Assembly (NCBI GenBank): GCA_039815185.1
Contig: JBCBZT010000070.1
Span: forward strand, 1-30,831
DNA: 30,831 bases
Direction of reading: 5' to 3'
Source: Cyanobacteria bacterium P01_A01_bin.123
GTDB lineage: Bacteria > Cyanobacteriota > Cyanobacteriia > Phormidesmidales > Phormidesmidaceae
Part shown: positions 14,817 through 24,014 of the stretch, piece after piece
Layout of the letters: each line of letters starts with the position of its first letter
Numbering within the stretch: position 1 is the first letter of the stretch
The notes under the pieces: model-generated
Told to the model about the DNA's origin: nothing
Databases searched by the model: none
Seen by the model: only the letters and a program-made list of their open reading frames with translations
Program-made: the position numbers and the translations under genes

Positions 14817-15776
14817 GTGAATATAAATAGAAACAAAGTAGATCTATGGAAAGCTGACATTGCTCAGTCAGTAGACTTTTATAATGAATGGTTTATGACA
14901 TTTGCACCAGAAGCATTCAGGAATACTCGTATTGAAACAACCAAGCAAGTTGAGCAGGCACTTACTTGGACAGAAAATTTAACTAATATTCTCCCTGAAA
15001 CGCTTCAGCGCTACCCTTCAATTTTATCCATGCTTCGAATGACAACCTGTCCACCAATTGCTCGTGATCGTCTCATTGGTTTAGCTGGTGTATCTCCAAA
15101 CTTAGTTAAAAGCATGGAAGTAAACAAGCGGATTCCGCCGAAAATGCCGCAGCCGCGACTTATCAAACAACTTGAAATGATCGGAAACATTATTGAACGA
15201 ATGGTTGACCCTGATATTTTCGTGTGGAAAGATCGGGGTGATCAAGGATCTCAAGAAGAAATTCATCGTGCTTCAACAATTGTTGCTGATCGTCTTTGTG
15301 GTGCAGTTGCCGATCCAATAATCCGAAATGCACAAGAACAGCGGCAGCTTTCAGCAATAAAGACATGGCTAGAAGCCCGTGAATACCGTCAATTAAATCC
15401 TGGCGAAGCTGAAGATTTTCTCTCAATGCCAAGAGGAACATTTTCATTCAGATTTAATGTTTCTGTAACGCTTGATATTGACAAATGGGTTAATATCCCT
15501 ATTGATGTTGTGATTATGCGTAAAGATTCTAAAAAAGGTGACTTCCCTGTATTTTTTGAAGCCAAATCAGCTGGTGATTTTACAAATACCAACAAGCGCC
15601 GAAAAGAAGAAGCAATCAAGATTCAACAACTTCGTGAAACATACGGTAATGAAATCTGCTTCAACTTATTCTTGTGTGGTTATTTTGACTCTGGCTATCT
15701 CGGCTATGAAGCAGCTGAGGGTATTGATTGGGTATGGGAGCATAGAATTGATGACATGGAAATAATTGGCTTATAA
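14817..15776 (+). CDS. Type II restriction endonuclease, XamI family
   Basis: WKADIAQSVDFYNEWF N-terminus, PID..FEAKSAGDFTNTNKRRKEE PD-(D/E)xK region; paired with a methyltransferase. Confidence 0.85.
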   Translation: MNINRNKVDLWKADIAQSVDFYNEWFMTFAPEAFRNTRIETTKQVEQALTWTENLTNILPETLQRYPSILSMLRMTTCPPIARDRLIGLAGVSPNLVKSMEVNKRIPPKMPQPRLIKQLEMIGNIIERMVDPDIFVWKDRGDQGSQEEIHRASTIVADRLCGAVADPIIRNAQEQRQLSAIKTWLEAREYRQLNPGEAEDFLSMPRGTFSFRFNVSVTLDIDKWVNIPIDVVIMRKDSKKGDFPVFFEAKSAGDFTNTNKRRKEEAIKIQQLRETYGNEICFNLFLCGYFDSGYLGYEAAEGIDWVWEHRIDDMEIIGL

Positions 15777-15779
15777 TTA

Positions 15780-17351
15780 ATGATTAATATCCGAGAAATT
15801 GAAAATCAACGACAGATATTACAAGTTGAGCTTGATAATTTAAAAACACAAGCTGAGCGTAATGTCATGGGGCAATTTTCAACTCCAATTGCCCTTGCTG
15901 ATGATATTTTGAACCATGCGAATAACATTGCAACAAAACGTGGCGCAATTCGTTTTCTAGATCCAGCTTGTGGTACAGGTGCATTTTTCAGTGCCTTAAA
16001 TAATACTTTCCCAGTCGCTCGTATTGAAGCTGCCACTGGCTTTGAAATTGATAAACATTACGGGGAACCAGCAAGTAAGCTATGGTCAAGTACGAATTTA
16101 AATTATCAGATTGCAGACTTTACACAGCAAACACCACCTCATGAGGACAATAAGTTTGACTTGATTATTTGTAATCCACCCTATGTTAGGCATCATCACA
16201 TCAATAATCAAAAGAAGCGCTTGCAAGCTAAAGCTCTTTCATCTGCCAACATGCAACTTTCGGGTTTAGCTGGTCTTTATTGCTACTTTATAGCGCTTTC
16301 ACATCAGTGGATGAAAAAAAACGGCATTGCTGGTTGGTTAATTCCTAGTGAGTTTATGGACGTTAATTATGGGCAGGCCGTCAAAAATTATCTACTAACT
16401 GAAGTGACTTTACTTCAAATTCATCGTTTTGATCCAAGTGATGTGCAGTTTGACGATGCCCTTGTTTCGTCAGCTATCGTATGGTTTAGGAATAAAAAAC
16501 CATGTAAAGGGTGCAAAGTAAAGTTTACATTTGGTGGAACGATAGATAGTCCCATGCATAAAAAAAGTATTAGTGTGGAAGTCCTAGCGAATGAAAAAAA
16601 GTGGACACGTTTTCCACTATCAAGAAAGCGTGAAGGGAAAAACGCTTTAAGGTTGAGTGATTTTTTTACAGTTAAACGTGGAATTGCTACTGGTGACAAC
16701 AAATTCTTTGTTTTATCAAGAGATCAGATTGAAAACCGAAATTTACCAATTGAGCAATTTCGACCAATATTACCAAGTCCTCGATATCTAAAAGTGGGTG
16801 AAATTAAGGCGGACAAAAATGGTTTTCCTGACATTGAGACTCCATTATTTGTTCTCGATTGCAAGCTGCCACTTGACGAAGTTAGACATATGTATCCTGA
16901 ATTATATTTATATCTTGAGGAAGGCATAAAGGCTGGTGTTTCAGAAAGATATTTATGCAAAAGCCGAAAGATTTGGTATTCTCAGGAAAATAGGCCTGAA
17001 AGTCGTTTCTATTGCACATATATTGGACGTTCTGATAATAAAACGAAGAAACCCTTCCGATTTATCCTGAATCATTCAAAAGCGATTGTTGCAAATTCGT
17101 ACTTAATTCTTTATCCCAAGCCAAAGTTAGAGCAGGAAATCAATAAAAATCCAGAATTCAATACAAATTTGATCGCAGCTCTCAACCAAATTACTGGTAA
17201 GGCAATGCTTGATGAAGGTCGCGTTTATGGTGGTGGAATGCACAAGATTGAACCCAAAGAATTAGCAAATGTTCCAGCATCTGAAATTAATGAATTGCTC
17301 AATCTTTCAATCAACAATCAAGCTTTTAATGTAGGAAATTTGAGAGCATAG
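15780..17351 (+). CDS. N6-adenine DNA methyltransferase (gamma class, M.XamI/TaqI-like)
   Basis: GQFSTP, FLDPACGTG (motif I), ICNPPY (motif IV), C-terminal TRD; 3 bp after the REase. Confidence 0.93.
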   Translation: MINIREIENQRQILQVELDNLKTQAERNVMGQFSTPIALADDILNHANNIATKRGAIRFLDPACGTGAFFSALNNTFPVARIEAATGFEIDKHYGEPASKLWSSTNLNYQIADFTQQTPPHEDNKFDLIICNPPYVRHHHINNQKKRLQAKALSSANMQLSGLAGLYCYFIALSHQWMKKNGIAGWLIPSEFMDVNYGQAVKNYLLTEVTLLQIHRFDPSDVQFDDALVSSAIVWFRNKKPCKGCKVKFTFGGTIDSPMHKKSISVEVLANEKKWTRFPLSRKREGKNALRLSDFFTVKRGIATGDNKFFVLSRDQIENRNLPIEQFRPILPSPRYLKVGEIKADKNGFPDIETPLFVLDCKLPLDEVRHMYPELYLYLEEGIKAGVSERYLCKSRKIWYSQENRPESRFYCTYIGRSDNKTKKPFRFILNHSKAIVANSYLILYPKPKLEQEINKNPEFNTNLIAALNQITGKAMLDEGRVYGGGMHKIEPKELANVPASEINELLNLSINNQAFNVGNLRA

Positions 17352-17576
17352 TAATAGTAACTGGTCGTTAGCTTGAAACAGAAAAATTGTGTTCAGGGTT
17401 CTTGGTAATTAACATCTCTGAGCAACTTTGAGGATTGACTAAAATCCTCGTGTCATAAGTCAAAATATTGAATTAGAGGGCTCTTGGCTGAAGTTTAAAG
17501 TCCTCGTGTCAAAAGATAGTTGCAAGAAGAGCTGTATCGCTGAGCTTAGGAGACATAGGCTTTCTACCCACGGGGG

Positions 17577-17618
17577 CTGAAAATCCTCGTGTTAGCGGTT
17601 CAAGTCTGCCTCATAGCA
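17577..17618 (+). repeat. Degenerate tRNA-Phe 3'-half copy (att remnant)
   Basis: 37/42 identity to 1-42. Confidence 0.85.
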
Positions 17619-17817
17619 TCTTAGAGATCTTCTGAGAATGACCTTGATGAGTCCCGAGTAAACTTAGGCTTGTGATTAGTTTGGGCAGGCTCATGTCCCT
17701 GGATAGTTGTACCCACAACAGCTAATCAAGGGCATCATTTGCGGCATGTGCATGAGAACACCAAGTTTTGGTAAAGTTGGTGTAATTAAGCAAGTATTAG
17801 GCTAACTTATCGATCAC

Positions 17818-22774: not shown

Positions 22775-23185
22775 ATGGACACTAAGAAACACGTCCAGTT
22801 GCTTGCATACAGCTTCATTACTTGGCTCAGTTTTTACATAATTGGACTTCCCGACTATTACCAGCAGTGGTACTTTTGGGCAAAAATTATGATTTGTGTC
22901 TTCGTCACACTCATCTATTTCCCGATTACGCAATACACCCTCAAAAAGTATTGGACTAACGGCAAACATTTGGTCAACTCGTGTTGGCTAGCCCTATACC
23001 TAACGCTTCCGCTTTTTGTATATGACTATCTCCTGCTGGCCGTTTACAAGGGTCTTGGAATCGGGTTTATTATTCCATACTGGTATTTGACGCTCTTCTA
23101 CTTCTCTTTCTGGATTCAATTTCCTCTTGTCGGTTGGTGGATGCAACGCACTACAACGCAGAGCTTGGAAGCCAGCGCAAGCTAA
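22775..23185 (+). CDS. Small membrane protein (about four TM helices)
   Basis: GAGG RBS; aromatic/hydrophobic helices. Confidence 0.8.
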   Translation: MDTKKHVQLLAYSFITWLSFYIIGLPDYYQQWYFWAKIMICVFVTLIYFPITQYTLKKYWTNGKHLVNSCWLALYLTLPLFVYDYLLLAVYKGLGIGFIIPYWYLTLFYFSFWIQFPLVGWWMQRTTTQSLEASAS

Positions 23186-23244
23186 TCAACTGTATTGGGA
23201 TTTTAGAGATCGCCGATCTTGTAGGGTGGTTTCCCACTGCAACT

Positions 23245-23268
23245 GCGGTTCAAGTCCGCCTCCTGGCA
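23245..23268 (+). repeat. 24-bp exact tRNA-Phe 3'-end copy (T arm to discriminator)
   Basis: GCGGTTCAAGTCCGCCTCCTGGCA equals 19-42. Confidence 0.88.
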
Positions 23269-23432
23269 TTTTTAGACACCTTTTTGGCCCAATAGCTTCG
23301 TGAACCGCACAGTCCGCAATCTCTTTTTGACCCAGACTCAGAAAGCCTCCTAAGGATGGCTCGTACTTAATCTCTCTCTGAGGGCCCATTCTTCTAACGC
23401 TATAATCCAGTTACCTCGTTTCTGCTCTTGAT

Positions 23433-24014
23433 ATGACACTGGATACAGCCAAACGCTTCAGCATAGAAGAGTACCATCGCTTAGCAGAGCTAGGTTTTTT
23501 TCAGAGCGATGAGCACCTTGAGTTGATACATGGAGAAATTATTCACATGGCAGCCAAAGGTGTTGCTCACGAAGTGTGTGTGACACGATTGCTGAGAGAG
23601 TTGCCTAAGTGTTTGGGAGAAACGGTCACTCTCCGTTGTCAATCACCTATTACCTTGTCACCAGACAGCGAACCTGAACCGGACTTGGCGATTGTACGCA
23701 ACCGAGACGACGACTATTTTGAGGGCCATCCTCAGCCAGCCGATATCTTATGGCTAATCGAGGTATCTGACTCATCTCTTACTTATGATCAGTCGGTTAA
23801 GCTGCCGATGTATGCAGCCCACAGCATTACCAAATATTGGATTTTCAACTTACTTGATAGTGTTCTAGAGTGTCACAGCGACCCCTATCAAAATCTGCAA
23901 GGAACTTGGGCGTATCGTGGCAAGCAAGTCTACTTGCCGACTGAAACCGTTGCTATTCCCTGTCTCTCTATTGAATCATCGCTTTCACTAGCTAAGGTGT
24001 TTCCACCCATTTGA
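23433..24014 (+). CDS. Uma2 (DUF820) family PD-(D/E)xK endonuclease-like protein
   Basis: FSIEEYHRL, ELIHGEI, EPEPDLAI, LIEVSDSS, K...YA...I..YWI. Confidence 0.93.
   Translation: MTLDTAKRFSIEEYHRLAELGFFQSDEHLELIHGEIIHMAAKGVAHEVCVTRLLRELPKCLGETVTLRCQSPITLSPDSEPEPDLAIVRNRDDDYFEGHPQPADILWLIEVSDSSLTYDQSVKLPMYAAHSITKYWIFNLLDSVLECHSDPYQNLQGTWAYRGKQVYLPTETVAIPCLSIESSLSLAKVFPPI

Follow-up and report, generated by a model that had tools for sequence, protein, structure and literature searches.

Gene units without integrases between tRNA-Phe fragments at the far end of a cyanobacterial tRNA-Phe island

We analysed a 30,831-nt contig of Cyanobacteria bacterium P01_A01_bin.123 (hereafter the window), in which single genes between positions 14817 and 24014 are punctuated by copies of the 3' half of the tRNA-Phe gene. 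This region is the far end of one tRNA-Phe-anchored island that carries its own integrase. The locus is probably a composite island formed by repeated site-specific integration at tRNA-Phe, with the small units as decayed leftovers bounded by attachment (att) sites. We observed an integration hotspot with tRNA fragments, an adjacent integrase and units devoid of an integrase, together with re-pairing of flanks at the fragment cores and some integrase remnants in relatives. An initial annotation had described the array as an integron-like system of its own. This description was not supported by the analysis, given that a true integron integrase (IntI) is encoded on another contig, that the unit ends have no common arm beyond the core and one short motif, and that most of the named units are not direct-repeat units.

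The window is the entire contig C112 (JBCBZT010000070.1) of the 8.09-Mb assembly G000 (GCA_039815185.1). Contigs of this assembly are designated C, compared loci and genomes L and G, and four runs of one study X1 to X4. ARAGORN located the single tRNA-Phe(GAA) gene of G000 at C94:203088–203160, and the terminal 141 nt of C94 are identical to positions 1–141 of the window, an overlap showing that the window begins at the anticodon loop of the intact gene. Because the gene is divided between two contigs, neither ARAGORN nor Rfam detected a tRNA in the window by itself. The assembly break between window 1–141 and the C94 end falls exactly at the att core. The intact tRNA thus lies just before base 1 and is followed by the integrase of a ~14-kb element, which makes the array the distal end of a tRNA island. 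The initial picture of the locus had omitted this intact integrase directly behind tRNA-Phe, as well as two partial copies (17441 and ~17494) and three copies on other contigs.

Table 1 Features of the tRNA-Phe island in the window
Feature	Position	Strand	Remarks
3' half of intact tRNA-Phe(GAA)	1..43	+	left attachment site of the island; 5' half at C94 end
Tyrosine integrase, 306 aa	72..992	-	phrog_1, E 2.7e-30; start overlaps primase stop
Body of phage-like integrative element	989..14127	.	primase-helicase, helix-turn-helix protein, FtsK-like ATPase, FHA, conserved genes without known function
Restriction-modification (R-M) pair, type II	14817..17351	+	XamI-family restriction endonuclease, Eco57I-type methyltransferase; cargo at right end of element; no tRNA copy to left
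Two short decayed anticodon-arm pieces	17441..17454 and ~17494..17510	+	first piece 14/14; 56 nt apart
tRNA-Phe 3' half	17577..17619	+	37/42 identical to tRNA bases 32-73
Inverted exact 3' half	17818..17877	-	42/42, plus 14 nt of flank identical to window 44-57
NNH3-NACHT-pentapeptide gene	18120..21476	+	flanked by back-to-back copies facing apart
Three copies of ~40-nt repeat	21477..21595	-	also at 22590-22628, on C71 and on C82
Decayed 3' half	21815..21857	+	34/42
Coiled-coil gene, 126 aa	21886..22266	-	antisense in 602-bp unit between direct copies
Exact 3' half	22417..22459	+	42/42
Non-coding arm	22460..22628	+	common to C71 site (212 nt with core, 93%)
Probable membrane protein gene, 136 aa	22775..23185	+	no Pfam family; 810-bp unit
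T-arm/acceptor-only copy	23245..23269	+	G421 holds a copy beginning at the same tRNA base
Uma2 gene	23433..24014	+	after last copy; 84% paralog on C6

The five tRNA-Phe copies at 17577, 17818 (inverted), 21815, 22417 and 23245, named already in the initial annotation, were confirmed far beyond shuffled queries: the four long copies match at 35–43 of 43 bases, compared with at most 26 in 500 shuffled queries, and the T-arm copy at 25 of 25, compared with a shuffled maximum of 19. Further single copies are present on C70, C71 and C100. G000 holds eight stray tRNA-Phe copies besides the overlap at base 1, and every other tRNA has at most two. C96:89969–91837 of the same assembly is a 16-gene tRNA array. 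The four long copies had been said to start at the anticodon loop behind a mimic of the stem, and the five nucleotides ahead of the loop are indeed G-rich, forming 2–4 Watson-Crick and 1–2 G-T pairs with the 3' stem, although the loop of the 21815 copy has one change. Fragments begin at several different points of the tRNA. Integrase crossovers in the anticodon loop, in the T-loop or at the 3' end were reportedly described by Williams in 2002.

The flanks of the copies have counterparts elsewhere. The 17577 copy, a probable right attachment site of the element, has flanks paralogous to the C70 site (148 nt, 80%), and the further flank of the inverted copy resembles the sequence behind the intact tRNA-Phe in L010 and L082. 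The arm behind the 22417 copy recurs on C71 with a different upstream flank and different downstream genes. The intergenic arms contain short tandem repeats of 28 and 40 nt as well as a palindrome (14136–14191, 14379–14458, 21477–21595 and 22683–22721), and a promoter and terminator scan gave counts equal to those of shuffles (13 versus 13.4 and 9 versus 9.8, respectively). A single arm family for the R-M, NACHT and membrane units was considered and rejected: the alignments were weak (z 5–8 in ~240 tests), an arm profile missed the R-M and NACHT flanks, and the 40-nt repeat also occurs on C82 with no tRNA-Phe copy near.

The gene identities of the initial annotation hold, and its view of the array as a row of single-gene units applies to the coiled-coil (602 bp) and membrane (810 bp) genes. 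Co-oriented copies bound just these two of the five named units, whereas the R-M pair has no left copy, the Uma2 gene has no right copy, and the NACHT gene is not between co-oriented copies; two of the four window segments between copies are co-oriented. The 602- and 810-bp units stand between direct tRNA-Phe fragments behind the tRNA, the integrase and the element, and no recombination or transfer genes were detected within them. No integrase remnant was found in the four segments at E 1e-3, the best match in the region having an E of 0.66. The NACHT block would have been inverted in place or have arrived inverted, and its flanking sites, as oriented, should be unable to excise it; other DNA occupies its place in contigs of two other samples. 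Given that the tRNA and the inverted copy have 57 identical bases in common, inversion of the intervening 17.8-kb segment may be possible.

Homologs of the membrane gene are patchy, being present in 12 of 172 other genomes at 71–92% identity. A tRNA-Phe fragment lies within ~1.5 kb at none of 13 membrane-gene homolog loci and at 1 of 21 coiled-coil homolog loci. Close coiled-coil homologs sit within phage-like elements in L024 and L125, and in L015 and L040 weaker ones adjoin copies. At the Uma2 paralog on C6, no tRNA fragment was detected. Judging from these homologs, the cargo genes of the window appear to travel elsewhere without the repeats.

The integrase next to the tRNA belongs to a family with eight relatives at 51–59% identity, in which the R and Y motifs are conserved. 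The open frame upstream of the aligned start amounts to only 0–24 residues in the nine family members, so that the window integrase probably lacks an NH2-terminal arm-binding domain; it is a candidate helper integrase. A PDB sequence search with it gave 0 matches. Homologous elements of ~9–18 kb lie between tRNA-Phe and a direct 3' copy in L011, L013, L118, L121, L122/L123 and L124. The element family is widespread in cyanobacteria at tRNA-Phe (window 72–14127; L011, L013, L114, L118, L121–L124, L127 and L128; plasmid records CP019638.1 and CP019637.1). An element gene block encoding proteins of 104, 632, 274, 183, 101 and 129 aa is conserved and gave no informative Pfam, PHROG or NCBIfam match. 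No relaxase or conjugation family was present among the matches in the window's element, and a search for virion genes in 72–17619 yielded no capsid family and no clear fold for the conserved 274-aa protein. Identification of this protein as a jelly-roll capsid was not supported: its predicted fold (pLDDT 72, 8 sequences) had no PDB match at Z >= 8 and a single BFVD match, with an E of 1.8e-4 and a TM score of 0.34. Its Atlas neighbours at 0.90 were mostly viral and unnamed, and no relative was found in the viral contig collection; two circular replicons of Nostocales, one 15.6 kb in size, encode homologs. Read depth in X1 was 46–53 over 9800–13331 compared with 31–35 over the cargo, a step that may reflect a free or additional form of the element. 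Among the contigs of the element, one from X2 terminates at 14165.

Similar arrays are present in related genomes. The 3' half was matched in 157 of 173 genomes of the order and at least three times in 15 of them, counts that were taken from a result table and include non-independent kin. A survey of 20 loci in 15 genomes, hand-picked for having clusters, yielded 31 segments of <6.5 kb between copies, of which 29 are co-oriented (27 distinct) and 6 are <300 bp; 22 segments contain an open reading frame of at least 60 aa. Matches to an integrase library were obtained in five segments, strong in L025 and in the twins L026/L033 and weak in two more, which places integrase remnants in two distinct small units. 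The earlier statement that small units contain no integrase agrees with the window segments; some units of relatives hold remnants of one. Cargo in relatives includes toxin-antitoxin (TA) pairs, Uma2, DUF4058, NACHT and pentapeptide proteins, as well as GT8, a C-N hydrolase, RTX and FG-GAP pieces and a TetR/GNAT/hydrolase/SDR cluster; the proposed defence flavour would suit the R-M, TA, NACHT and Uma2 genes but not the glycosyltransferase, the hydrolase, the RTX pieces or the cluster. The order element, copy, single gene, copy recurs in L038, L118 and L119, three integrase families adjoin copies, and clusters in the near-complete genome G042 are situated 0.5–4.4 Mb from the tRNA in both orientations. 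A class-wide exact-pattern scan detected 7 of 351 genomes with a narrow pattern that understates the range. Scans of contig collections returned four stretches from the genome collection (pattern too narrow), one from the viral collection (a plain tRNA), and none and then eight from the metagenome collection. A broken integrase reads into a tRNA-Phe fragment followed by differing cargo in L022, L028 and L041, and in L022 and L028 it adjoins the same host genes; the arrangement resembles a fixed platform at some distance from the tRNA.

Flanks were typed at 48 sites in one genus plus three similar metagenome contigs. They change partners at the fragments in these relatives: of the downstream flank types that were found repeatedly, 6 of 8 occur with two or more upstream types, and of the upstream types found repeatedly, one of them the intact tRNA, 7 of 9 occur with two or more downstream types. 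This is seen most clearly in a Uma2 unit without an integrase, 92–95% identical in L034 and L154, with both neighbours changing at the cores. Within G000, the C71 site combines a C100-type upstream flank with the downstream arm of the 22417 type. Neighbours change exactly at the repeats, and the initial identification of the repeats as attachment-site pieces at an integration hotspot is upheld. Re-pairing of this kind would also be expected of a dedicated integron-like system, in which mini-cassettes with minimal att ends are moved singly in trans by the short integrase, an explanation that we consider doubtful. The Uma2 unit of L034/L154 suits such a system, and the integrase, apparently devoid of an arm-binding domain, might need little besides the core. 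Tandem integration of unrelated elements, however, also yields re-pairing at cores, and most ends are unique, with 35 downstream flank types among the 48 sites. Moreover, some units contain integrase remnants, just two of the five units fit at this locus, those two remain linked in the X2–X4 contigs and in L057, and fragments are almost always missing near the homologs of their genes. Movement of single units in trans is thus not required by the data and fits the window locus poorly, and we regard it as unlikely. The fullest version of this idea is an attC-free cyanobacterial cassette system, with spare tRNA-Phe 3' halves as reusable sites and the short integrase of an undescribed 13–21 kb element family acting in trans to excise, insert and invert units of one gene, both at the tRNA and in satellite arrays at other chromosomal places; it is possible but improbable.

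Contigs of the four runs were aligned to 9800–24800, with X1 being perhaps the source sample. Missing cover over the R-M and NACHT genes in X2–X4 was not scored as absence; contigs entering from other sequence were scored. X1 contigs match 13302–17847 and 17849–20605 without a single difference; both flanks of the inverted copy are thereby supported, with the core itself left unbridged. Contigs of X2, X3 and X4 cover parts of 21620–24200, most at ~96–99% identity, and contain the coiled-coil unit in all three samples and the membrane unit in X3 and X4. The short contig L057, filed under G181, has the coiled-coil gene, the copy, the arm and the start of the membrane gene in the same order at 93% identity. 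Three G181 contigs, C476, C551 and C544 (L057, L082 and L096), are short and nearly identical to G000 around tRNA-Phe copies; their source is probably an organism closely related to G000 whose contigs were binned with another genome. Behind the tRNA of L082 stands a different flank that lacks the integrase. Wrong joining of repeats during metagenome assembly, suggested by the contig break exactly at the core and by public X1 contigs that end inside exact copies rather than bridging them, is hardly credible in view of the independent X1 contigs on both sides of the inverted copy, the repetition of the order around 21815–23274 in X2–X4 and L057, and the similar arrays in G042.

The same contigs revealed variation at the locus. 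In X3 and X4, contigs of different sequence join the window at 21620, 195 nt ahead of the 21815 copy, and in one contig of X3 other DNA connects 21620 with an end at 17877 that matches the core. The NACHT block therefore varies: one of its ends coincides with a repeat, and the other stops 195 nt before one. Neither bounded unit was seen to be gained or lost among the X1–X4 contigs, one joint being ambiguous. A joint of 22463 to 24008 with 36 other letters, present in X1 and X4 and absent from the assembly, could be an emptier allele or another organism, and an X2 joint of 17875 to 22467 on opposite strands arises because the core is common to both sites. The strain comparison proposed in the initial annotation thus gave a divided answer, with partners switching at repeats in relatives but with the bounded units co-inherited and the X3/X4 breakpoint off the repeat. 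The off-repeat breakpoint is what would be expected if the fragments were inert scars and later change proceeded by homologous or illegitimate recombination and unrelated insertions without any integrase. Strain breakpoints are often off repeats, membrane-gene homology to relatives stops near the gene rather than at the repeats, and two copies are decayed and one inverted. Junctions exactly at cores in relatives and between the C100-type, C71 and 22417 sites nevertheless count against inert scars, as do the two exact distal copies and the intact-looking adjacent integrase, and we consider that explanation distinctly improbable.

The composite island could have formed as follows. Incoming elements would have crossed over at the anticodon loop, one of them at the T-loop, each displacing a 3' fragment outward. 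Older elements would then have lost their integrase and body by deletion and kept their ends with one or two cargo genes. Because the stem-loop-like core is kept, the fragments may still serve as secondary targets and end points for tRNA-Phe integrases, and leftovers could therefore be excised, depart together with an adjacent element or acquire new neighbours. The array would in effect be a slow cassette array that arises as a side effect of ordinary integrative elements and not through machinery of its own. A short motif is present at the left ends of 9 of 20 small units and 7 of 12 large elements and behind 1 of 11 right ends (shuffled expectation <1; end classes assigned by hand), and beyond the core and this motif no common arm was found at unit ends. 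Together with the integrase remnants in relatives, the common motif appears to point to larger parents that are phage-like in look. Erosion from larger elements, the outcome that the initial annotation had named as contrary to its proposal, is thus apparent in part.

Several observations weigh against formation of the island by accretion and decay. The two bounded units of the window do not have the left-end motif (0 of 2), and copy decay in the window is not graded with distance (37, 42, 34 and 42 of 42). No autonomous parent of the 22460 arm was found, matches in 4 of 173 genomes being uninformative. An integrase remnant is missing from 24 of the 29 co-oriented segments, so that descent from larger elements can only be inferred for most. 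In G153 and G134, units without an integrase are situated immediately behind the tRNA, where the streptococcal rule would place the least decayed elements, the most decayed being farthest; insertion of a large element at an outer fragment would also explain G134. In G421, which belongs to another family, near-identical arms of ~460 nt surround different TA and Uma2 cargo with no integrase match in 20 kb. The units of G134, G153 and G421 also favour single movement in trans.

Downstream of the array, 25373–29413 contains a large gene that combines an eCIS-core domain with a Scabin-like one (paralog at C71:17869–20790). It is followed at 24728–25366 by a gene resembling its C-terminal repeats, and a 27-bp inverted repeat (25343–25399) separates the two.

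We consider it rather likely that the stacked scars behind tRNA-Phe reflect a known mode of genomic island growth and not a new kind of integron. If so, the locus clearly illustrates, in a cyanobacterium, how islands grow by accretion and decay; phage-like elements, besides integrative and conjugative elements (ICEs), leave single-gene leftovers, and fragments persist as recombination junctions. With one integrase, five natural site variants and both direct and inverted pairs, the locus also offers a compact test system for distinguishing passive from self-moving leftovers. If units did move singly in trans, the array would amount to an integron analogue whose sites derive from tRNA att sequences, and the integrase could serve as a minimal-site tool.

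Integrons are characterized by an IntI integrase with an attI site, by attC sites with paired end boxes and a bottom-strand hairpin, and by co-oriented cassettes each closed by a site. The present locus resembles integrons and clusters of attC sites lacking integron integrases (CALINs) in its row of mostly one-gene units between related sites and in its TA and defence-like cargo. It differs in that the sites are tRNA-derived att cores, the orientation of genes and sites is mixed, and the intergenic arms are long. No IntI with attI was found at the locus: the sole match above the TIGR02249 cut-off is on C36, and none of the nine listed matches is on C112. A home-made, weak scan without a positive control gave no attC-like hairpin candidate below z -1.9 in nine intergenic stretches of the window. 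Cassettes are not consistently co-oriented and closed by a site, with two of four segments co-oriented and the coiled-coil gene antisense. Given the location of IntI on C36, the mixed orientation and the weak scan without attC, the locus is not an integron. The true integron integrase of G000 is encoded at C36:718–1659, above the family cut-off, with IntI fragments on C14, C39, C5 and C24. In L043 and L048, an 86-nt segment with attC-like end boxes begins at the stop codon of a membrane-gene homolog; origin of the membrane gene as an integron cassette was rejected, the boxes having been identified by eye only and folding being non-significant (z -0.1 and -0.6).

No description of such a system at cyanobacterial tRNA-Phe was found in the literature searched, subscription papers and supplements being outside the search. 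The Prochlorococcus study (10.1101/2020.12.28.424599) describes islands in which partial tRNAs separate the elements, and in which fragmented integrases and stray partial tRNAs are left as remnants. These tycheposon-built islands resemble the present one in being cyanobacterial, in standing behind tRNAs with partial tRNAs between elements, and in insertion next to tRNA segments. However, tRNA-Phe is outside the seven targets listed there, single-gene units are prominent here, and the likeness is one of island architecture. Tandem arrays and mixing of att halves are mentioned in PMC9580842.

PMC7563491 and PMC5704250 describe cis-mobilizable elements (CIMEs) as decayed elements that keep att sites without recombination genes. 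Streptococcus CIMEs have cargo forms of 1.2–13 kb and empty forms (microCIMEs) of 130–220 bp, and stand in tandem with ICEs or integrative and mobilizable elements (IMEs), farthest from the target gene. The likeness lies in att-bounded units without an integrase, with cargo or empty, stacked at one target behind an autonomous element. In contrast to the streptococcal CIMEs, the autonomous partners here are phage-like with a primase-helicase, the units are as small as 0.35–0.9 kb with one gene and some lie directly behind the target, and clusters also occur far from the tRNA, with one copy inverted. The locus has the structural features of CIMEs and may be classed as a variant in which accretion is driven by phage-like elements, with CIME-like and microCIME-like leftovers.

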